A stretch of 64,000 nucleotides of DNA. It comes from Bacteroidota bacterium (lineage in GTDB: Bacteria; Bacteroidota; Bacteroidia; Bacteroidales; FEN-979). The stretch lies in the NCBI GenBank assembly GCA_037139855.1, contig JBAXFM010000001.1:2503-66502 (forward strand). The letters run 5' to 3'. The notes below the pieces were generated by a model that was not told the origin of the DNA, searched no databases, and was given only the letters and a program-made list of their open reading frames with translations. This document shows, piece by piece, positions 4,189-54,899 of this stretch; the stretch's first letter is position 1; each line of letters opens with the position of its first letter. Both the position numbers and the translations under genes were made by a program.

Positions 4189-4205
4189 CAAATACATTTT
4201 TGCCG

Positions 4206-4275
4206 AAAATGATACAAAAAATGTCAATAATGATACACAAAACGCCAATTAAGTTGCATAAAACGCCAATTAAAT
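4206..4275 (+). promoter_or_regulatory. Two pairs of direct repeats, each phased 21 bp apart, upstream of ORF 4284
   Basis: AATGATACA at 4208 and 4229. AAAACGCCAATTAA at 4239 and 4260. The 21-bp spacing is two helical turns. Lies in the 95-nt gap before ATG 4284. Confidence 0.4.
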
Positions 4276-4283
4276 AGCAAATC

Positions 4284-4793
4284 ATGAAAACAGAACTTGA
4301 GATTACCCAGGATTTATTGGAAATCATTGCTGAATGCGAATTTAGAATTCACAATGCAAGAAAGGCTATTTCAGTACTGACCGGAATAGTTTATGAAGAT
4401 GGCCCATGGAATTGGGATGAAAAAATTAAAGTTGCAAATACTGATTTGTTTCATGCGCCGGTACAAGATACGCAACTACCTGTACCCCCCCCTGTTACGA
4501 AACAGAAGGAAAAGCAGAAGAGAACGTTCGCCGAAAAGAACTGTGAAAATTGCGGTAAACCATTTATGCCAACGCATAATAAACAACGCTTCTGCAGAAA
4601 AGAGTGTAATCCGAACGTGGCAAAGAAACAACCAACAGGCAAAGAAATCATTGAAGAAATGCTCGAATTAAACCATCAACCGGTTGCTCCGGAAAAGCAT
4701 GTTGACCCGGTTGCATTTAAAGCGAAGATGGATCAGATCAGGCATGATATCCCCATCCAGCGGGAACGGCCAAATGTTACACGAGGATTTTAA
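4284..4793 (+). CDS. hypothetical protein with a zinc-ribbon-like motif (169 aa)
   Basis: CENCGKPF...x10...FCRKEC four-Cys motif flanked by Lys/Arg-rich segments. Possible nucleic-acid binding. Confidence 0.6.
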   Translation: MKTELEITQDLLEIIAECEFRIHNARKAISVLTGIVYEDGPWNWDEKIKVANTDLFHAPVQDTQLPVPPPVTKQKEKQKRTFAEKNCENCGKPFMPTHNKQRFCRKECNPNVAKKQPTGKEIIEEMLELNHQPVAPEKHVDPVAFKAKMDQIRHDIPIQRERPNVTRGF

Positions 4794-5202: not shown

Positions 5203-5372
5203 TAAGGAAATCCATTCTGTGGTTGACAACCTGGATGGTGAACAGGTAATGAATGTTATCTGGAAAGAAAAGGAGTCCCGTTAAAATTCACAGAGTTGCC
5301 TCCTGATACTCCATTTACGGATGATCGCACGCTCGTGGAACTTGTTTATCCTAATTCCTTATAATTTTTCAA

Positions 5373-5537
5373 ATGGAAGAGAAACCAATTATATTCAGTA
5401 CACCCATGGTCCGGGCAATCATGTTCGGACAGAAACACATGACCAGGCGATTAAGCGGATTAGAAAGAATAAACCGCCGGGCTGACGACTGGGTTGGTGA
5501 CAGCCATATTTCGCATATAATCCTATTCAATCAATAA
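5373..5537 (+). pseudogene. 54-aa ORF resembling only the N-terminus of ASCH-like phage proteins (possible gene remnant)
   Basis: MEEKPIIFSTPMVRAIMFGQKHMTRR matches from memory the N-terminal signature (P-I-L-F-S-x-P-M-V-x-A-I-x-x-G-x-K-x-x-T-R-R) of a common phage protein family that is normally over 100 aa. Here the frame stops after 54 codons. Below the track length cut-off. Confidence 0.3.
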
Positions 5538-5572
5538 CGGTTCATTTGCTATCTTTGAACAAAAATACACTC

Positions 5573-5788
5573 ATGAGTAAGACAGTTGAATTATCCAAGG
5601 CTCAAATAAGCACGATATTGTCGTGCATCAATGAGCGTGAGGCTTTATATCTCAAGGAAATTGAGGTTAACAAGGATAAAAAGGAACAGGTACTGATGGT
5701 CAAAGGCTGGAAAAAGAAGCTGATCGTTATTGAGGAGCTCCAGCGCCTGTTCGGTTATTCACGTTTATCTGTTCCCGGCAGGAAATAG
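5573..5788 (+). CDS. hypothetical protein (71 aa from ATG 5573)
   Basis: The track ORF opens at TTG 5546. The first ATG is at 5573 (MSKTVELSKAQ...). Last gene before the early-operon terminator. Confidence 0.5.
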   Translation: MSKTVELSKAQISTILSCINEREALYLKEIEVNKDKKEQVLMVKGWKKKLIVIEELQRLFGYSRLSVPGRK

Positions 5789-5858
5789 CACCGCACCATC
5801 TCCCCCAGGTTGATCGATCTCCCGCCGGTCGATGCTCAGGATCACTTCAGAAAGAACT

Positions 5859-5885
5859 AAGCCAGGCATTCGCCTGGCTTTTTAA
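5859..5885 (+). terminator. Rho-independent terminator closing the early operon
   Basis: AAGCCAGGC-attc-GCCTGGCTT perfect 9-bp stem followed by TTTAATT. Confidence 0.7.
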
Positions 5886-6116
5886 TTGGTGAAGTATGGA
5901 GCTGGGTGAGCGGCAGCGAATACAGCTCGGTACGAACTCCTTATTCATTTCTCTCCTCCGGGGTCTGTTTTCGCCCCGCCGCCCCCTTTCTTTCTGAAAA
6001 ATTATAGTGCAAAGGTACGGTATGAAAATCGCAAAGAGTTGAAGGCCTTATACATATATATATTATTTATTAATTTATCTTTTTGACAAGTATACTTATA
6101 AGAATAATAGAAAATA

Positions 6117-6306
6117 TTCGTGCTTTCGTGCGCACTAAAATTTTTAAAATGTAACGATCTGATTTTGAGATTTTATGAGGGTGTTTTTTACTGCACGAAA
6201 ATCGCACGAAAAGCACGAAAAGCACGAAAATCGGTACTACTTTTTTAAATGCATTGATACTCAAATGGTTGCAAAATGAAAGTACGAAAGCACGACTGCA
6301 CGAAAA
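6117..6306. repeat. Iteron array: nine copies of GCACGAAA(A)-type motif next to an A/T-rich tract
   Basis: Bottom strand: TTCGTGC and TTTCGTGC at 6117..6131. Top strand: GCACGAAAA at 6193, 6204, 6213 and 6222. GTACGAAA at 6282, GCACGA at 6290, GCACGAAAA at 6298. Preceded by a near-pure A/T stretch at ~6048..6116. Confidence 0.8.
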
Positions 6307-6465
6307 TATTTGGACTTTTTACCAAGTATGCCTGTCACTTCGCACAAACTTTTTTTGCTATTGGAATTCTGAGATTACTATTGGATTTTTGCTTAATAAT
6401 TCTTATATGAAGGTACCATAAACATTGACCTTTATAAAGACAACAGTCGAACTTAATTTTACTCC

Positions 6466-8432: not shown

Positions 8433-10595
8433 ATGAAACAATTTTTTGCGACCATCCTGGCATTCCTCAGTATCCAGGCATTTGCCAAGGATAAGGATGG
8501 TAAGAGCATTTTGACCGAGGAACAACAAACAAAGCTGAATGCTGAGTTTGGTGACGAGTTCACCAGCCAGTTTGTTCAGGCTCTCTCAAAGGATCCGGAG
8601 GGTAATTCCACGGACAACGCTACCATCGGCGCCATGGTCACTGCGATGACATCAAAGTTACAGGCCGCTGCCGCTGAAAATAACACATTGCTTGCAGCAA
8701 AGAAAAAGTCTGACAGCGACCTGCTCGCTGAAAAGGCTGAAAAGGACAGGCTCGCCGGCATTGTAACCGAAAAGGATGGCATCATTGCCACACTCAAAAA
8801 AACTCCGGAAGACGACCCGGAAGCAAACCGTAAGGATATGAAGACAGATCCCAAAAACTGGAAACCGACAGGTCAGGATACTCACCTTTTCGGTAAAACC
8901 GATTCATTCTTTGCCCTTGACGCAGGTCACGGATACAACAAACGTGCTTATGCAGCACTTTGTGCCATGCATGGTATCGAAATGGGCGCACCGCGCGCTG
9001 CTTCATCGCTTGATTATGCATCGCTGAAAAGTGACCTGGGCGAATATTACCGCGTGAGGATGCAGGATCGCATCCAGAGTTTCCTGCAGGAAATGCCCGA
9101 CCTGGAGAAAGTATTCCCGACGGAATCAGGGTACCAGGATCAGGCCGTGCTCGTGAATCTCTTCCTCACCGATGATTTCTCACAGGCCGACAGCACTGCC
9201 CTGGGCAGCAGCTTTGACAACATGGTTAAAGGCGGCTACAAGTTCGAGCCGGAAATCCTCACCATGTACGATGTGATGTTCGTTCATAAATTCTCTCAGC
9301 TGAAGGAACTGGAAAAGACCTGGATCGGTTTCCTGAACCGTGAAGGATCATCGACCATGAAATGGTCATTCATCCAGTACATTCTGGTGGAAACCGCCAA
9401 GAAACTGAAGAACGAAAAGACCAACCGGTCGATCCGCGGGGTTCGCAAAAACCCGACGCAAAATGTTGCCGGCACTTCACTGCAGGCCAGCAATGGTTTG
9501 TTGAAGTTCATCAAGAACCAGATTGCAGCTTTCAAGGTAAAACCCTTTGCCCTGGGCGAATGGACACCTTCCACCATTGCGGCATACGTGAAGAATGCCA
9601 CGAAGTTGATTCCTGAAGTGTTGCGTGACTCCGGCCGGATCGTACTCTACATGAGTACCGACGCTTTGAGCGATTACCACACCAACCTGGAGACCCTTTA
9701 CGGTTTGAACCAGGATTACAAGGCCGATATCATGTACGTGAAGGAATATCCTTCGGTAAAGATCATCCCGGTGATCGGGATGGCTCCGAGCAAACGCATG
9801 ATCTGGACCCTCGAGGGCAACATCAAGCAGTTCGAAGATCAGCCTGGTGAGATGCTCAACTTCAACATCGAGCAGCAGGACTGGACTTTGAAAGTCTGGA
9901 GCAACTGGCGCGAATCCGTATGGGCATACCTGGTTGGAAAGAAGTACGCTTCTGCCGCCGAGATGCCATCAGATTACAGCACTCAGCTGATCTTCTGCAA
10001 CGATGTGGATGAGGCTGCCGATTACTTCATCAGCGCAGATGCCAACGACACCACCCCATCGGTGTTGAATCACACCTCCCTGGTGACTGTTGCCAATTCA
10101 CAGGCTACTGCCATCACCACATTCGACGACTGTGCCGTTGGCCAGGAAGTCAGGATCAAGTGCGGCAACGCCACCAACGCTTCCACCATCGCAGCTTCCG
10201 GGAACTTCTCCCTGATCACTGCAGCCTGGACTCCTTCGGTAGGGGATATCCTTTATCTGAAGAAAAGAAGTGACGGCAAGTTCATTGAACTCAAGAGGGA
10301 TGTTGTCAGCAGCACTGCCACGGCAATTGCAGCGGATGATGTAACGCCTGATGTGACCGGCAATGACAAGTTCATCACGGTTGCCAATTCACAGGCCACG
10401 GCCATCACAACCTTCGACAATGCTGTTACGGATAAGGTATACACCATCTACGGCGGCAGTGCTACGAATGCTTCAACGATTGCAAACGCCGGGAACTTCG
10501 TTCTCACCGCTGCAATGACTCTCACCGCAGGTACCTGGATCAGACTCCAGAAAGCAGCGAACGCTAAGTTCTACGAAATCGACCGCAGCGCATAG
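8433..10595 (+). CDS. putative major capsid protein with scaffold-like N-terminus and two C-terminal repeat domains (720 aa)
   Basis: Starts 4 nt after the protease stop. The Ala/Lys/Glu-rich coiled-coil N-terminal ~150 aa is delta/scaffold-like. Large central domain. The call is positional (protease then capsid) plus compositional; no search was run. Confidence 0.65.
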   Translation: MKQFFATILAFLSIQAFAKDKDGKSILTEEQQTKLNAEFGDEFTSQFVQALSKDPEGNSTDNATIGAMVTAMTSKLQAAAAENNTLLAAKKKSDSDLLAEKAEKDRLAGIVTEKDGIIATLKKTPEDDPEANRKDMKTDPKNWKPTGQDTHLFGKTDSFFALDAGHGYNKRAYAALCAMHGIEMGAPRAASSLDYASLKSDLGEYYRVRMQDRIQSFLQEMPDLEKVFPTESGYQDQAVLVNLFLTDDFSQADSTALGSSFDNMVKGGYKFEPEILTMYDVMFVHKFSQLKELEKTWIGFLNREGSSTMKWSFIQYILVETAKKLKNEKTNRSIRGVRKNPTQNVAGTSLQASNGLLKFIKNQIAAFKVKPFALGEWTPSTIAAYVKNATKLIPEVLRDSGRIVLYMSTDALSDYHTNLETLYGLNQDYKADIMYVKEYPSVKIIPVIGMAPSKRMIWTLEGNIKQFEDQPGEMLNFNIEQQDWTLKVWSNWRESVWAYLVGKKYASAAEMPSDYSTQLIFCNDVDEAADYFISADANDTTPSVLNHTSLVTVANSQATAITTFDDCAVGQEVRIKCGNATNASTIAASGNFSLITAAWTPSVGDILYLKKRSDGKFIELKRDVVSSTATAIAADDVTPDVTGNDKFITVANSQATAITTFDNAVTDKVYTIYGGSATNASTIANAGNFVLTAAMTLTAGTWIRLQKAANAKFYEIDRSA
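10053..10592 (+). repeat. Tandem in-frame duplication of a ~97-aa module at the capsid-protein C-terminus
   Basis: GTTGCCAATTCACAGG occurs at 10089 and 10380 (period 291 nt). Peptides TVANSQATAITTFD...ATNASTIA..GNF are shared by residues 541-637 and 638-720. Confidence 0.85.
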
Positions 10596-13913: not shown

Positions 13914-15585
13914 GATAACGACTCAGGAGGCCGATATCCGTTACTCGAATTGGATATCCACGCTGATCGATCTGATCAAGCCGGCAAATCTTTATCTCTA
14001 TGGTGGCCGTGGAACGGCAAAATCAACTGAAATACTGGCAAAAAGGACCATTGATGTGGTATATGACATGCCCAGGGCAAGTTTTGCCTTTGTATCGGAT
14101 ACTTACGTGAACCTGATGACCAACATTATTCCGGCCATTTTGACAGGATGGGAGGGGAGAATGAAATTCCTGGAGAACTATCATTTCGTGGTCGATGTGC
14201 CGCCTCCGGATCACTGGCCCAAACCCCTGGTTAAAACCTTTTCATTCAAACATACTATTTCAACCTTCAACGGTTGTAAGTTCTTTCTTACTTCTCTTGA
14301 CAGGCCATCATCGAACGCCGGGATCTCCGTAGTGCACCATTTTGGCGATGAAGCAAAGTACCTCCAGTGGGATAAATTAAGTAAGCTTTTTCCGACGCTC
14401 AGGGGAGACTATGCCCTTTATGGCCATTCCCATTACTTTATGGGTCAAACGTTCTGCAGCGACATGGCTGATCCCAGTGTGGGAGAAAGTGACTGGATGC
14501 TGCGCATGGAAAAGAACATGGACAAAGAACAGATCACCCGGATCATCCAATCTGCCATTATCCTCAATGAAATTAACCTGGAGCTTTACCAGGCTGAGCA
14601 AAAAGGTGAGGATATCAAACGCATTGACAACATCAAAAAAAATCAGGCTCGCTGGATAGAGCGCATCCGCAAGATTCGCCAGGACAGCACATTCTTCTAC
14701 ATAGTCAGTTCCTTTGCCAATGCCGATATACTTACCCTGCGATACTTCCAGAACCTGTTGGCATCATTGACATTTGAAGAGTTTAAGACTGCAGTACTGT
14801 CTATCCGTAAGACCCTGGAGAAGGGCGCCCGTTTCTATGGTGCCCTGGCAGATAAGCATTTCTACATTGATGGCTACAACTATGACTACTATGACAAGTT
14901 TGGCATACGTGACAATGTGTCTCAGACATCAGCAGGGCTGAAGTATGTACAGCATGATAAGATACTCGAGGGTGGGTTTGATGCAGGCAACATGATGAGC
15001 CTGGTAATAGGGCAGGAGCAGGGCAATCAGTATAGGGTACTCAAAGGTATGTACACGCTTACACCAGAGTGGATAAGGGAGTTAGGCGATAAGTTCATTA
15101 CATTCTTTGAACCACATAAGCGTAAGGTATTGCATCTGTACCATGACAGATCAACCAATCAGTATCGTAAGACAGGACGTGACGTTGCTACTCAACTCAA
15201 ACATGATATCGAATACAATAAGGCAGGCACACGTACTGGATGGATCGTACAGCTTATGAGTGTGGGACAGGGCAACATATCGCACTCAGATGAGTTCAAC
15301 CTGATGAACATCATGATGGGTGAGAAGGATAAGAGATTACCCAAACTGTTAATAGATAAGTTTGAGTGCAAGGAACTCAAGAGCCAGCTCGAGATCACTC
15401 CCGTTACCAAGAGCAGCAAGGGTGAGATACAGAAGGTAAAGAAAGGCGATAAGTTATCGCCATCACGATTGGCAATGGAGTCAACAAACTTCTGTGATGC
15501 GTTCAAATATCTGCTATGCAGGCACAAATGGCTTGCCATAGCCAGGCAGAAGAGGGGCCTTACCTTTGGCTCCCTTAACATGTAA
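13900..15585 (+). CDS. terL: terminase large subunit
   Basis: Walker-A-like YLYGGRGTAKST and Walker-B-like VVHHFGDEAKY. ~560 aa, typical TerL size. ATG 13900 chosen; the track ORF opens at TTG 13870 and ATG 13876 is possible. Confidence 0.85.
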   Translation: MSKTKITTQEADIRYSNWISTLIDLIKPANLYLYGGRGTAKSTEILAKRTIDVVYDMPRASFAFVSDTYVNLMTNIIPAILTGWEGRMKFLENYHFVVDVPPPDHWPKPLVKTFSFKHTISTFNGCKFFLTSLDRPSSNAGISVVHHFGDEAKYLQWDKLSKLFPTLRGDYALYGHSHYFMGQTFCSDMADPSVGESDWMLRMEKNMDKEQITRIIQSAIILNEINLELYQAEQKGEDIKRIDNIKKNQARWIERIRKIRQDSTFFYIVSSFANADILTLRYFQNLLASLTFEEFKTAVLSIRKTLEKGARFYGALADKHFYIDGYNYDYYDKFGIRDNVSQTSAGLKYVQHDKILEGGFDAGNMMSLVIGQEQGNQYRVLKGMYTLTPEWIRELGDKFITFFEPHKRKVLHLYHDRSTNQYRKTGRDVATQLKHDIEYNKAGTRTGWIVQLMSVGQGNISHSDEFNLMNIMMGEKDKRLPKLLIDKFECKELKSQLEITPVTKSSKGEIQKVKKGDKLSPSRLAMESTNFCDAFKYLLCRHKWLAIARQKRGLTFGSLNM

Positions 15586-15728
15586 CACAATCCTTATAGG
15601 CAATGCCCATATATGTGTGATTTCGTAAAGTACGAAACCACTGCATGTGTGGGATCCTCCATGCCCTTTTGTCATATATCCGCCTACCAGCGCGGGTGAA
15701 CGTGCCCCCCGGCGGCTGGGCGGGTCGT

Positions 15729-15771
15729 CCGGTTTGGCATCTTGGCTTTTGTAAAAGCCAAACCAAACCGG
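15729..15771 (+). other. 43-nt near-perfect hairpin downstream of terL
   Basis: CCGGTTTGG-catc-TTGGCTTTT-gt-AAAAGCCAA-a-CCAAACCGG (9+9 bp). No clear T-run follows. Confidence 0.6.
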
Positions 15772-15783
15772 TTAAAAAATAGA

Positions 15784-15808
15784 AAATCAGCCATTCTGTC
15801 TGATTTTT
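15784..15808 (+). terminator. Weak rho-independent terminator
   Basis: AAATCAG-ccattctgt-CTGATTT followed by TTTTAC. Confidence 0.45.
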
Positions 15809-15840
15809 ACATAAAGTTTTACTTTAATGTTGATCTCATG

Positions 15841-16152
15841 GAAAGGGAAGTTCAAATTTTGGACTTCCTTTTTCTTTGAATAACCGGCAAAGAAAAAGGA
15901 AGCGAAAAAGAAACCGAGTTTGGCCAGCGCACTACTTAATACTCGAAATTCATCAAAGTTACCTATGGGGAAAGAAGGGTAAAACTGTCAAGGGCGGCCT
16001 CCTGGAGGAACTTGCCGCCTTTCAGGTTACTTCAGATTGCATGCAATCGTGACCCACACCCCTGACATTATTTATTCCCCGCGGTGAAGCCTTACGGCAA
16101 AATTTCATTATTAACCAGCGGCCTGATAACGGCTGCATAAAACAATTGCCGT
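15841..16152 (+). promoter_or_regulatory. Structured leader element L1 upstream of the radC-like gene (paralog of L2)
   Basis: 15-bp perfect hairpin CTTCCTTTTTCTTTG(15864..15878)/CAAAGAAAAAGGAAG(15888..15902). 23-nt core GGCCAGCGCACTACTTAATACTC (15922..15944). Hairpin GGCGGC..GCCGCC (15993..16019). Palindrome GATTGCATGCAATC (16035..16048). The same order and spacing occur in L2. Confidence 0.6.
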
Positions 16153-16614
16153 ATGAAAACCATGAACTTGTTCAACTCGAGCGTTGCTGAAGTAAGCATC
16201 GTCTATCACAACACCGTTCGCCCGTCTGAGCGACAGAAAATCACCAAATCAAATGATGCCTTTGACCTTCTCAAGAGCATCTGGAATGACCAGATTGATC
16301 TTTATGAGTCGTTCTACATCCTTTTAATGAACAGGGCAAACAAAGTCCTGGGCTATCGCTGCATTTCCCAGGGAGGAGTCTCTGGGACCGTGGTGGATCC
16401 CAAAGCGATCTTCCAGGCCGCCCTGCTGGCTAATGCGTCAAACATTATCCTGGCACACAATCACCCGAGCGGAACCCTGGTTCCCTCAGAGGCCGACGAA
16501 AGAATTACAAAGAAGTTAAAATTAGCTGGTGAGTACATGGAAATACAGGTACTTGACCATCTGATCCTGGGCGATGAAAGCTTTTATTCATTTGCTGACG
16601 ACGGGAGGTTATAA
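16153..16614 (+). CDS. radC: RadC-like JAB/JAMM domain protein (153 aa)
   Basis: Intact JAMM motif HNHPSGTLVPSEAD (HxH-x7-S-xx-D). ILAHNHPSG and the C-terminal LDHLILG are typical of the RadC/DUF2466 family. Confidence 0.85.
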   Translation: MKTMNLFNSSVAEVSIVYHNTVRPSERQKITKSNDAFDLLKSIWNDQIDLYESFYILLMNRANKVLGYRCISQGGVSGTVVDPKAIFQAALLANASNIILAHNHPSGTLVPSEADERITKKLKLAGEYMEIQVLDHLILGDESFYSFADDGRL

Positions 16615-16751
16615 TGGAAGCGCTATACGAAATGTTCAGCCAGCTGCAGGATGATGTTTACTATCCTGGGTACTGCCTTGCAATGGAAACATCAGATCCT
16701 GAAAAGGTAAAATTCGAATGGGAACAGTTTTTAAAAATGTTCTCTAAATGA
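16614..16751 (+). CDS. small hypothetical ORF (45 aa) translationally coupled to the radC-like gene
   Basis: TAATG stop/start overlap with radC. MEALYEMFSQLQDDVYYPGYCLAMETSDPEKVKFEWEQFLKMFSK. Ends 5 nt before a strong terminator. Below the track length cut-off. Confidence 0.45.
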   Translation: MEALYEMFSQLQDDVYYPGYCLAMETSDPEKVKFEWEQFLKMFSK

Positions 16752-16755
16752 CAGG

Positions 16756-16784
16756 AGCCCCGGGAAAACCCGGGGCTTTTTTTA
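16756..16784 (+). terminator. Rho-independent terminator
   Basis: AGCCCCGGG-aaaa-CCCGGGGCT followed by TTTTTTTAT. Confidence 0.8.
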
Positions 16785-17103
16785 TGCTCGCAGCGGCTCG
16801 CCTTGAGGGCGGCTTTCTTTTTTGAAATCACCGCAAAGAAAGAAAGCCGGCAAAGAAAAACACGGTGGCCAGCGCACTACTTATTACTCAAATTTAGTGC
16901 AAAGTTAACCTCACGAAAATATCATCTCTCTAAACGCGGTCTCCTGACGGATCCACCGCCCGTTGGGTTCATTCATATCCTGCGGATACTGACCTGAACA
17001 TTTGTTCCAGAATTTTCATTCCGGTTATGGCAGTGGCATAAATTTTTCATTCATCAGGCGGAGCCAGATGCCTAAATAAGTCCCCAGGGCAGGGGCACAC
17101 ACA
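16785..17103 (+). promoter_or_regulatory. Structured leader element L2 upstream of the 136-aa ORF (paralog of L1)
   Basis: Hairpin GGCTTTCTTTTTTG(16811..16824)/CAAAGAAAGAAAGCC(16834..16848). Core GGCCAGCGCACTACTTATTACTC (16867..16889), 22/23 identical to L1. Hairpin GCGGT..ACCGC (16936..16959). Hairpin TATCC-tgc-GGATA (16976..16988). Confidence 0.6.
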
Positions 17104-17514
17104 ATGACAAAAGTAAGTTCAGCAGTTCAGAAACCCACCAACGGCGGGGCAAGTGCATCAGAAAAGACCGGTCTAACAGTGATCAGGCCGGTTCAGTCTC
17201 CCAACTTCACGATTCCGGAAGAGAAAAACCCGGTACCGGAAGTCAAAAAGGAGTTAACCCTCACCGAAAAAATTCAAAAGGTCGAAAACCTGCAGCTCAT
17301 CGTCGAGAAAAGGACGAAACTGGTGCAAACACGAAGCGAAATTGAAAGGTTTCAAACCGCTTCCAATGATTTCAACTGCAGCCTGCGGCTGAATGATTCA
17401 GACGGAAATGTCTTCACCACCAGTTTCACCCCTGGAATCAAGAAGGTAATTGAGTTCCTTAAGTCAGCTTTCGATGCAAGCATCAGCGAAGTTGAACAGA
17501 AAATCAACTTCTAA
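17104..17514 (+). CDS. hypothetical protein (136 aa)
   Basis: Disordered-looking N-terminus followed by a coiled-coil-like segment. Bounded by leader L2 and its own terminator. Confidence 0.6.
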   Translation: MTKVSSAVQKPTNGGASASEKTGLTVIRPVQSPNFTIPEEKNPVPEVKKELTLTEKIQKVENLQLIVEKRTKLVQTRSEIERFQTASNDFNCSLRLNDSDGNVFTTSFTPGIKKVIEFLKSAFDASISEVEQKINF

Positions 17515-17525
17515 GCTTCTTAAAG

Positions 17526-17556
17526 GGAGTCCCGGGAAACCGGGACTCCTTTTTTT
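17526..17556 (+). terminator. Rho-independent terminator
   Basis: GGAGTCCCGG-gaaa-CCGGGACTCC perfect 10-bp stem followed by TTTTTTT. Confidence 0.8.
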
Positions 17557-17621
17557 CTGCTCGTATCCCCACCGGTGGGTGTGTCCTTTAAAAAAACCTG
17601 CTCAAAAGATATGTTTGCTCC

Positions 17622-17912
17622 ATGATCACCGAGGAGACCATAGATCTGTACGAAGCCATCCGGGAAATGAGGAAATTGTCACAGCAGGACAAGTCCTTTT
17701 CTTTCGTTCATGCCACGCTGAACCGGGATAAGGATACCAGCGAAGGAATCCGGTACGTGAAAAGTGCACACCTCAGGCCTGCGGCCAAAGGGGATGATCT
17801 GGTAAACGCGGATGACAAGATTTTCTATTTCGATGAAGAGATTGAGAAACCAAGGGTTTGCTGGCAATTGCTGATCATGTATTTCGATGATAAACGGGTA
17901 ATTCTTAATTGA
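17622..17912 (+). CDS. hypothetical protein (96 aa)
   Basis: Clean ATG. Ends 6 nt before the next gene. No recognisable motif. Confidence 0.55.
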   Translation: MITEETIDLYEAIREMRKLSQQDKSFSFVHATLNRDKDTSEGIRYVKSAHLRPAAKGDDLVNADDKIFYFDEEIEKPRVCWQLLIMYFDDKRVILN

Positions 17913-54587: not shown

Positions 54588-54899
54588 GAAAGGGAAGTTC
54601 AAATTTTGGACTTCCTTTTTCTTTGAATAACCGGCAAAGAAAAAGGAAGCGAAAAAGAAACCGAGTTTGGCCAGCGCACTACTTAATACTCGAAATTCAT
54701 CAAAGTTACCTATGGGGAAAGAAGGGTAAAACTGTCAAGGGCGGCCTCCTGGAGGAACTTGCCGCCTTTCAGGTTACTTCAGATTGCATGCAATCGTGAC
54801 CCACACCCCTGACATTATTTATTCCCCGCGGTGAAGCCTTACGGCAAAATTTCATTATTAACCAGCGGCCTGATAACGGCTGCATAAAACAATTGCCGT
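54588..54899 (+). promoter_or_regulatory. Structured leader element L1 (second copy)
   Basis: Exact second copy of 15841..16152. Confidence 0.6.

Follow-up and report, generated by a model that had tools for sequence, protein, structure and literature searches.

Structured Non-Coding Leaders Preceding Anti-Restriction-Type Genes in Prophages of Uncultured Bacteroidota

Introduction

Two neighbouring genes in a 64,000-nt stretch of DNA from a Bacteroidota bacterium (GenBank assembly GCA_037139855.1, contig JBAXFM010000001.1, positions 2,503 to 66,502 of the forward strand; hereafter the window, to which coordinates refer) are each preceded by a leader of about 310 nt, and the question raised by this locus is what these leaders are and what they do for the genes behind them. 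The first, L1 (15841-16152, + strand), ends at the ATG at 16153, and the second, L2 (16785-17103, + strand), ends at the ATG at 17104. L1 and L2 are members of a large, hitherto undescribed family of folded non-coding sequences located before anti-restriction-type genes, and the leaders probably control how the downstream genes are switched on. Anti-restriction and entry genes need immediate expression on the arrival of foreign DNA, and Bacteroidota dominate many gut and anaerobic communities.

The leaders were pointed out in an earlier reading of the letters of the window alone (the original prediction), which described two paralogues sharing a core and three hairpins; every feature listed there for L1 and L2 lies where it was placed. 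Three points go beyond that description, namely the long-range helix P1 with a four-way junction, a family of at least 80 copies, and the presence of the sole host-type promoter box on the opposite strand.

A Family of Leaders in Bacteroidota Prophages

Relatives of the leaders were collected by protein- and pattern-anchored scans of IMG/VR and GTDB genomes and then by nhmmer, which gave 43 and subsequently 96 non-identical copies; a covariance model of the junction (R1) returned 101 matches, 82 of them distinct, from 58 sources. The similarity, which could have been confined to this genome, thus extends to at least 80 distinct copies in prophages and integrative islands of uncultured Bacteroidota. 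Without exception, the copies lie on the coding strand with an open reading frame (ORF) immediately behind them. They are carried by uncultured Bacteroidales/Bacteroidota prophages that match the phage of the window in type, where they sit between terminase-like and portal-like genes or at the prophage end, and at least one carrier is an island with integrase, HTH_17, VapE, and DnaG-primase genes. This island (L216, 1-13800) has no tail genes in view and holds at least five leaders, which precede a 117-aa gene, RadC, ArdC, and p141; one of the copies (9330-9554) is not followed by a called gene. The island may be a satellite.

No similar DNA was found by blastn among 50,697 cultured-phage records, and blastn in distant mode against 72,556 plasmids (PLSDB) gave no match. 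Rfam cmscan returned 0 matches in the whole window at the gathering score and nothing relevant in 15500-17300 at E <= 10. A tRNA-like element was also considered and discarded, as ARAGORN reported 0 genes in 1-38800.

Common Fold and Covariation

The anatomy of the element was taken from three alignments (A2, A3, A4), and the full structure was read by eye and then tested by pair counts and by the covariance model. From 5' to 3' the element consists of an optional hairpin 1, an A-rich tract, the core, AAATTT, the box, the hairpin P0, a four-way junction, P5, a sequence block, P6, and P7, for a total length of 220-330 nt. Hairpin 1 is a polypyrimidine/polypurine duplex of 11-21 bp, and its 5' arm also serves a small hairpin further upstream as T-run; hairpin 1 is present in 27 of 43 copies and the base of its stem varies yet pairs (CTTCC/GGAAG, GGC/GCC, CGC/GCG, GTAC/GTAC, CAGC/GCTG). 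The A-rich tract carries an extra GCTTTT/AAAAGC hairpin in some copies, and AAATTT is followed after 3-5 nt by the box GCAAAGTTA and then by P0, which is variable. Several copies keep the box without hairpin 1 and the core, and many keep the junction and the box without hairpin 1.

In the junction, P1 is a long-range helix that occurs as AAGGG/CCCTT, AAGTG/CACTT, AAGAG/CTCTT, AAACG/CGTTT, and other variants; P2 contains an internal loop, P3 consists of 3 bp closing a triloop, and P4 is of variable length. The single-stranded joiners, GGTTCATTCAGAT and (G)TGACC, are nearly invariant. The 3' part comprises a variable P5, the block A(A/T)AAATTT, P6, in which AGGC/GCCT alternates with AGGT/ACCT or which reads GCGGC/GCTGC, and P7, whose loop is AGGGCA, which covaries and which lies 6-8 nt before the ATG in most non-RadC copies.

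The fold is borne out by covariation. In the seed alignment (34 sequences, plain MAFFT), 93.1% of the junction cells are paired versus 77.1% after shuffling, 17 of the 21 pairs change on both sides, and double-change cells number 111 (26 expected), a count that 0 of 500 shuffles reach; slid controls are 31-45% paired. The model-aligned set of 82 distinct sequences, an alignment which is fitted to the model and hence favours the structure, whereas the seed is not, gives 92.9% versus 77.6%, the same 17 of 21 pairs changing on both sides, 234 double-change cells (0/500 shuffles), and 30-47% in slid controls. RNAalifold independently recovers P2, each of whose six pairs shows double changes; run on the raw MAFFT alignment, it detected no other helix because the variable hairpins are out of register. 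The three hairpins of the original prediction, which correspond to hairpin 1, P2, and P4, are real and covary, and the compensatory character of the stem differences between L1 and L2 is upheld family-wide and not just between the two copies. P1, P3, P5, P6, and P7 are additional helices.

L1 and L2 in the Window

All repeats in the window recur at +38747, so that the window runs about 1.65 times around a genome of 38,747 bp, either circular or terminally redundant, and copy counts within the window need halving. L1 and L2 are seen again at 54588.. and 55532.. in a second pass of the same genome, and are therefore two real copies, not four. Matches to R1 in the window are L1 and L2 only, and the core, with up to three mismatches, is found only in L1, L2, and their +38747 copies (zero expected, 100 shuffles).

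L1 begins with a small hairpin, GGAAGT/ACTTCC, and its T-run (15846..15878, + strand), which doubles as the 5' arm of hairpin 1 (15864-15878 / 15888-15902, + strand; CTTCCTTTTTCTTTG, a 9-nt loop, CAAAGAAAAAGGAAG), where 15 of 15 pairs are Watson-Crick. The 23-nt core GGCCAGCGCACTACTTAATACTC follows (15922..15944, + strand; family consensus GCCnnCnCAC..TTACTC) and then the box (15954..15961), which reads CAAAGTTA on the + strand and, on the - strand, TAACTTTG, that is, the Bacteroidota -7 consensus TAnnTTTG, and is unpaired. The four-way junction (15986..16075, + strand) scores 87.9 bits with R1 (E 2.8e-24) and is made of P1 (15986-15994 / 16059-16067), P2 (15995-16017), P3 (16018-16026), P4 (16035-16048), and the joiner GTGACC (16049-16054). 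In the 3' part (16089..16136, + strand), P5 (GCC-TTAC-GGC, 16089-16098) is followed by an AAAATTT block and by P6 (16118-16136, + strand; GCGGCC/GGCTGC with a G.U pair); P5 and P6 were read off the alignment by eye.

L2 is built in the same order. Its small hairpin (16799-16811) and hairpin 1 (16811-16824 / 16834-16848, with one T.G pair and one bulge) occupy 16799..16848 on the + strand, the core lies at 16867..16889 (+ strand), and the box TAACTTTG at 16900..16907 on the - strand. The junction (16928..17015, + strand; R1 84.8 bits, E 2.8e-23) comprises P1 (16931-16936 / 16999-17004, with one C.A mismatch), P2 (16937-16958), P3 (16959-16967), and P4 (16976-16988), and the 3' part (17056..17095, + strand) holds P6 (AGGC/GCCT, 17056-17073) and P7 (CCCC-AGGGCA-GGGG, 17082-17095), 8 nt before the ATG. 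L1 and L2 are paralogues, with cores identical at 22 of 23 positions. Their internal spacings agree with the original prediction within 1-2 nt; the gap from P2 to P4 in L2 is 17 nt rather than 15-16.

The small upstream hairpin does share its T-run with hairpin 1, as had been proposed: in L1 15846-15868 overlaps the 5' arm by 5 nt and in L2 16799-16811 by 1 nt, the T-run being the 5' arm itself. The suggestion that the two folds are mutually exclusive as in attenuators did not hold. The polypurine arm, which would be the competitor (15888-15902; 16834-16848), comes 3' of the T-run, and by the time polymerase reaches it termination has already been decided; it therefore cannot serve as a classical anti-terminator. 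Hairpin 1 is moreover absent in many copies, and a transcription attenuator was accordingly rejected.

The leaders are non-coding. The reading frames of the small ORFs that run through them (15876-16052, 16803-16997) are not conserved across the family, and the possibility that the core is read as part of a leader peptide or other small ORF (WPAHYL..) was rejected, this frame being broken at variable places in different family members.

The sequence at 5986-6019, taken in the original prediction for a degenerate fragment resembling parts of L2, is a genuine partial third copy that covers one module only, the box module (5986..6033, + strand), with a T-rich tract, AAATT, GCAAAGGTA, and ATGAAAAT, next to iteron-like repeats. 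It has TACCTTTG on the - strand at 6010-6017 and is not detected by either the HMM (hidden Markov model) or the covariance model. The stretch between the terminase-like gene and L1 (15586-15840) is also conserved with the relative L001, for instance in GTGTGGGAT..CTTTTGTCATAT..GGGCGGGTCGTC and ATTTTTAC.TAAAGTTTTACTTTAATGTTG, and contains hairpins, one of them bidirectional terminator-like at about 15785-15812.

Genes Behind the Leaders

Each leader is part of a cassette in which a terminator, the leader, and one small gene follow each other; cassettes stand in tandem, with 1-5 copies per locus, and are separated by + strand intrinsic terminators. The association with a radC gene was correctly predicted: L1 precedes a RadC/JAB gene (16153-16614, + strand; Pfam RadC, 2.9e-39), behind which the first cassette also holds the gene of a 45-aa IYYPGY protein (16614-16751, + strand), provided with its own leader in relatives, and ends with a strong intrinsic terminator (16755..16783, + strand). 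The second cassette consists of L2 and the p136 gene (17104..17514, + strand), which encodes 136 aa of no known family.

Among 80 distinct copies, the downstream gene is most commonly of the p136 family (30), followed by ArdC with ArdcN and MPTase-PolyVal domains (19), RadC (14), the small IYYPGY protein (11), ArdcN-only proteins (2), and SSB (1), with three other single cases. The leaders are selective, since no full leader was found before the MmeI-type restriction-modification (R-M), Fic, SLFN-like ATPase, and tRNA_anti genes of the same islands, and the SLFN-type gene has only a short leader fragment upstream. In other loci the neighbours are orphan methyltransferases, NgoFVII-type R-M, Vsr, and UDG.

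Between the terminase-like and portal-like genes lies a hypervariable hotspot of accessory genes. In relatives this island carries defence-type cargo without a full leader (L217 4349-7590; L218 2485-7903; L137 411-4501; L149 4360-7998), examples being a caspase-like peptidase, SLFN/AlbA ATPase, MmeI-type R-M, Fic, C5 and Eco57I-type methylases, NgoFVII R-M, and Vsr.

The p136 family counts more than 600 homologues, and in nearly every case its cassette is the final one ahead of the portal-like gene. An AlphaFold model of p136 shows a disordered variable N-terminus and then an invariant module of helix, beta-hairpin, and helix (prefoldin-like topology). The protein was considered as a trans factor; the model had no significant match in the PDB and so gave no functional clue. 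The start of p136-family genes (ATG ACA AAA GTA / ATG xCA AAG ..) reads TACTTTTG on the - strand (17108-17115), and this TAnnTTTG, which points back into the leader, could reflect either chance at the codon level or an antisense promoter.

In many uncultured phages and islands, one conserved, complex, and covarying element marks ArdC, RadC, SSB, p136, and IYYPGY genes. These genes make up a candidate regulon, and the element provides a handle for new anti-defence genes, namely whatever gene comes after it. A different explanation is that the leaders serve or reflect the shuffling of cassettes, as portable homology for the recombinational exchange of accessory genes, in the manner of the promoter-stem-loop cassettes of T4-type phages, and with no structure-dependent function; in fact, related elements differ in cassette order and content yet share leaders. 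Homology, however, leaves the compensatory changes in at least five helices and the invariant junction bases unexplained, and this explanation is considered very improbable.

Proposed Role and Strand of the Leaders

The reading preferred here, held tentatively and with somewhat less than even confidence, is that of a cis-acting structured 5' leader of the cassette mRNAs that co-regulates entry and anti-restriction genes. L1 and L2 would be copies of a modular regulatory leader heading independent cassettes in the accessory island of temperate phages and integrative elements. The upstream part (hairpin 1, A-rich tract, core, and box) would be the initiation and control region, and the approximately 200 nt from the box to the ATG would be transcribed together with the gene into an RNA that folds into the four-way junction (P1-P4) and then P5-P7. 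The leader may act in cis via access to the translation start site, a route for which P7 would be suitably placed at 6-8 nt from the ATG, via mRNA stability or processing, or via the binding of a shared trans factor, and RadC, ArdC, SSB, p136, and the IYYPGY protein would form one co-regulated set.

Structured 5' leader RNAs are marked by covarying secondary structure and by a constant place and orientation directly before coding genes, and both are found in the family. Orientation, the fixed distance to start codons, P7 at the start site, and the + strand terminators between cassettes all point to the + strand RNA. That this RNA is the molecule that folds is an inference, as are the place at which transcription would start and the signal to which the leader would respond. 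A look-up for transcript ends gave ENA assemblies only (ERZ4201038, ERZ4223250). If the element senses a signal, or if it works as DNA, a new regulatory mechanism would be at hand; if it is merely a stabilising leader, it would still be a new and widespread structured element.

Several observations weigh against an RNA leader. Single-sequence folds are uninformative and not unusually stable (L2 z = +0.39, L1 z = -1.96), and P1 of L2 in the window is weak. No + strand TAnnTTTG is found at any aligned position common to at least 6 of 43 copies, and the neighbouring gene at 17622, unlike the leaders, has a textbook + strand box, TATGTTTG, at 17610. In P1-P3, Watson-Crick cells number 1045, A.C cells 21, and G.U cells 6, so that G.U does not appear as the tolerated intermediate usual in RNA; the A.C cases are spread over many lineages and represent about 12-14 independent events, and in the terminator stems of the same sequences G.U is more frequent than A.C (11 versus 6). 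A near-absence of G.U is unusual for a selected RNA fold. By minimum free energies, the - strand looked more stable; strand preference by this measure was rejected as evidence, being an effect of base composition, because shuffles differ by the same amount. Wobble pairs point to different strands for the two parts of the element, since hairpin 1 has ten T.G and zero C.A among its non-Watson-Crick pairs, which favours folding of the + strand.

The behaviour of the junction is compatible with a folded single-stranded DNA element, plausibly the template (minus) strand, serving as a structure-dependent promoter and/or priming signal. Such an element would be a Bacteroidota counterpart of the Frpo/ssi repeats before ssb, ardA, and psiB in plasmid leading regions, or of G4-type ssi/sso signals; Frpo/ssi single-strand promoters reportedly go back to Masai and Arai in 1997. 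Covariation is almost purely Watson-Crick, without G.U preference, and the mild A.C excess of the + strand is equivalent to G.T on the template strand (21 versus 6). The only canonical -7 box is on the template strand, unpaired and just 3' of the P0 hairpin there, and a + strand promoter is not seen. One repeat of about 300 nt stands before each gene as for Frpo, the gene set (ArdC, SSB, RadC, with orphan methyltransferases adjoining) is typical of leading regions (PMC11541004), and the same single-stranded DNA question was raised by the authors who described STAXI (PMC2864571). However, most sampled contexts are tailed prophages, with tape measure, head protease, portal-like, and terminase-like genes, and one is the integrase/VapE/primase island; no relaxase or type IV secretion gene occurs in the sampled contexts, a limited sample, and in prophages in which conjugation genes were not seen a stage of entry as single-stranded DNA is not expected. 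A conserved complementary partner of the box was searched for within the element and none was found, so that no duplex -33/-7 promoter is rebuilt as in Frpo, and the fold is a branched junction, unlike a single long imperfect hairpin. Pairing in hairpin 1 favours the + strand, the constant placing of a hairpin 6-8 nt from the ATG speaks for a role at the mRNA level, and there is no similarity to any PLSDB plasmid. Taken as a whole, folded DNA appears rather unlikely. A particular form of it, in which host RNA polymerase or a primase would start on the junction as single-stranded or extruded template-strand DNA, with the unpaired TAACTTTG as a pre-melted -7 element beside the P0 duplex, is given somewhat less credence.

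The box also bears on the promoter question in duplex DNA. The Bacteroides promoter consensus is TTTG/TAnnTTTG, and a perfect TAnnTTTG is present on the - strand at a single aligned position in 31 of 43 copies (in the window 15954-61 and 16900-07), besides the partial copy at 6010-17. The elements could accordingly be duplex-DNA control regions with a divergent host promoter, in which TAACTTTG fires leftwards to give an RNA of 130-160 nt containing the core and hairpin 1. This RNA, antisense to the upstream terminator region, would be a shared antisense regulator or an insulator against read-through, compatible with an RNA leader rightwards. The core is the most conserved stretch between the paralogues (22/23), which fits recognition in trans, and a bidirectional-looking terminator, read by eye from the sequence, lies left of L1 at about 15785-15812; left of L2, however, there is no clear terminator for such an RNA, the sole candidate being weak. 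Furthermore, a -33 element (TTTG at 19-21 nt) on the - strand was not found by eye, the wobble pairs of hairpin 1 favour the + strand, and several copies keep the box but neither hairpin 1 nor the core. A divergent promoter of this kind is thought unlikely. Among other promoter types, several geometries of a hairpin promoter were tried by reading the sequence, as was a -33 element on each of the two strands, and none fits the 19-21 nt spacing; the core does not, by eye, fit the sigma-54 consensus, and a phage-specific promoter is unlikely, given that the motifs are found nowhere else in the genome.

The lack of a + strand promoter inside any leader also leads to an RNA processing or anti-termination module, in which the cassettes are read from a distant upstream promoter. 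A candidate is the + strand TAnnTTTG TACCTTTG (15561-15568), inside the end of the terminase-like ORF and just before its stop codon. The leader would then make polymerase terminator-resistant, in a put-like manner, or mark the polycistronic RNA for cleavage, e.g., by RNase III at the 15-bp hairpin 1. A terminator precedes every leader, and in hairpin 1 the U-run of the terminator is built into a long perfect duplex; on the other hand, hairpin 1 is optional, and put and nut sites are much smaller than the element and of another shape. The evidence being circumstantial, such a module is held to be improbable, to about the same degree as the divergent promoter.

Relation to Known Elements

The element joins a known kind, that of conserved structured non-coding elements upstream of DNA-handling and anti-restriction genes on mobile DNA, from which it is distinguished by its fold, by the phylum Bacteroidota, and by its tailed-phage carriers. 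The radC motif is associated also with DNA-handling genes other than radC on mobile DNA. The radC RNA motif (RF01754) is listed for Proteobacteria and the STAXI motif (RF01728), made of tandem pseudoknot units, for Enterobacteriales; the latter lies near Ssb, anti-restriction, and integrase genes, and for it the question of RNA versus single-stranded DNA was raised (Weinberg et al. 2010, PMC2864571). The comparison with these motifs made in the original prediction is apt in its theme, the family preceding RadC, ArdC, and SSB genes, but does not extend to membership of the Rfam families: neither RF01754 nor RF01728 has a cmscan match in the window at the gathering score or in 15500-17300 at E <= 10. 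Like the radC motif, the leaders are conserved structured elements in the presumed 5' untranslated region of radC and other DNA-handling genes on mobile DNA; they differ in fold and length, being formed by a four-way junction of about 200 nt and further hairpins. With STAXI they share the genomic neighbourhood of Ssb, anti-restriction, and integrase genes and the same question, for which the leader is a test case: RNA or folded DNA? In contrast to the tandem pseudoknots of STAXI, they form a four-way junction, and each gene has a single one, set at a constant distance from the ATG.

Frpo folds so that the -35 and -10 elements and their complements form a duplex on transferred single-stranded DNA (Samuel et al. 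2024, PMC11541004). The leaders resemble the Frpo/ssi repeats as dispersed repeats of about 300 nt in a single orientation before several anti-defence and SSB genes, in which structure outweighs sequence; in particular, 1-5 co-oriented elements per locus stand before ArdC, SSB, RadC, and p136 genes. They differ in that the box is unpaired and the fold branched, and in that the carriers are tailed prophages and an integrase/VapE/primase island, with no similarity to any plasmid. A promoter-complement duplex, a carrier that is a conjugative leading region (in a limited sample), and sequence similarity to plasmids were not found. If folded DNA were nevertheless the active form, anti-restriction genes of tailed phages and satellites would be expressed from non-duplex DNA at entry.

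The T4-type PeSL (promoter-early stem-loop) cassettes and the lambdoid "moron" units consist of a regulatory element, a gene, and a terminator and are shuffled in hyperplastic phage regions. The leaders and their genes are likewise self-contained accessory cassettes shuffled between genomes; PeSL and moron units, however, have short promoters and simple stem-loops, whereas here a multi-helix element of 220-330 nt with strong covariation is present.

The Phage Genome Carrying the Leaders

The 38.7-kb genome is that of a temperate tailed phage of a Bacteroidota host. It encodes a tape-measure protein, a head-maturation protease, an integrase, and a primase-domain protein, and nearly all its genes are on the + strand; a p136 protein identical to that of the window is on record from a metagenome-assembled genome named "Bacteroidota bacterium". 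The textbook Bacteroidota promoter TATGTTTG (17610-17617, + strand) follows a strong terminator (17522-17622 region) and consists of TTTA, 20 nt, and then the box, which ends 4 nt 5' of the ATG at 17622; judged from this spacing, the mRNA of the 96-aa gene that starts there would be leaderless or near-leaderless.

A non-coding region of 1.26 kb (5203-6465) contains the partial box module, an AT-rich stretch, and about eight iteron-like repeats, GCACGAAAA / GTACGAAA, at about 6120-6310, and looks like a replication origin or control region. At 4201-4280, three to four tandem 21-bp repeats (..AAAACGCCAATTAAGTTGCA..), which resemble operator or iteron repeats, are located directly 5' of the ORF at 4284.

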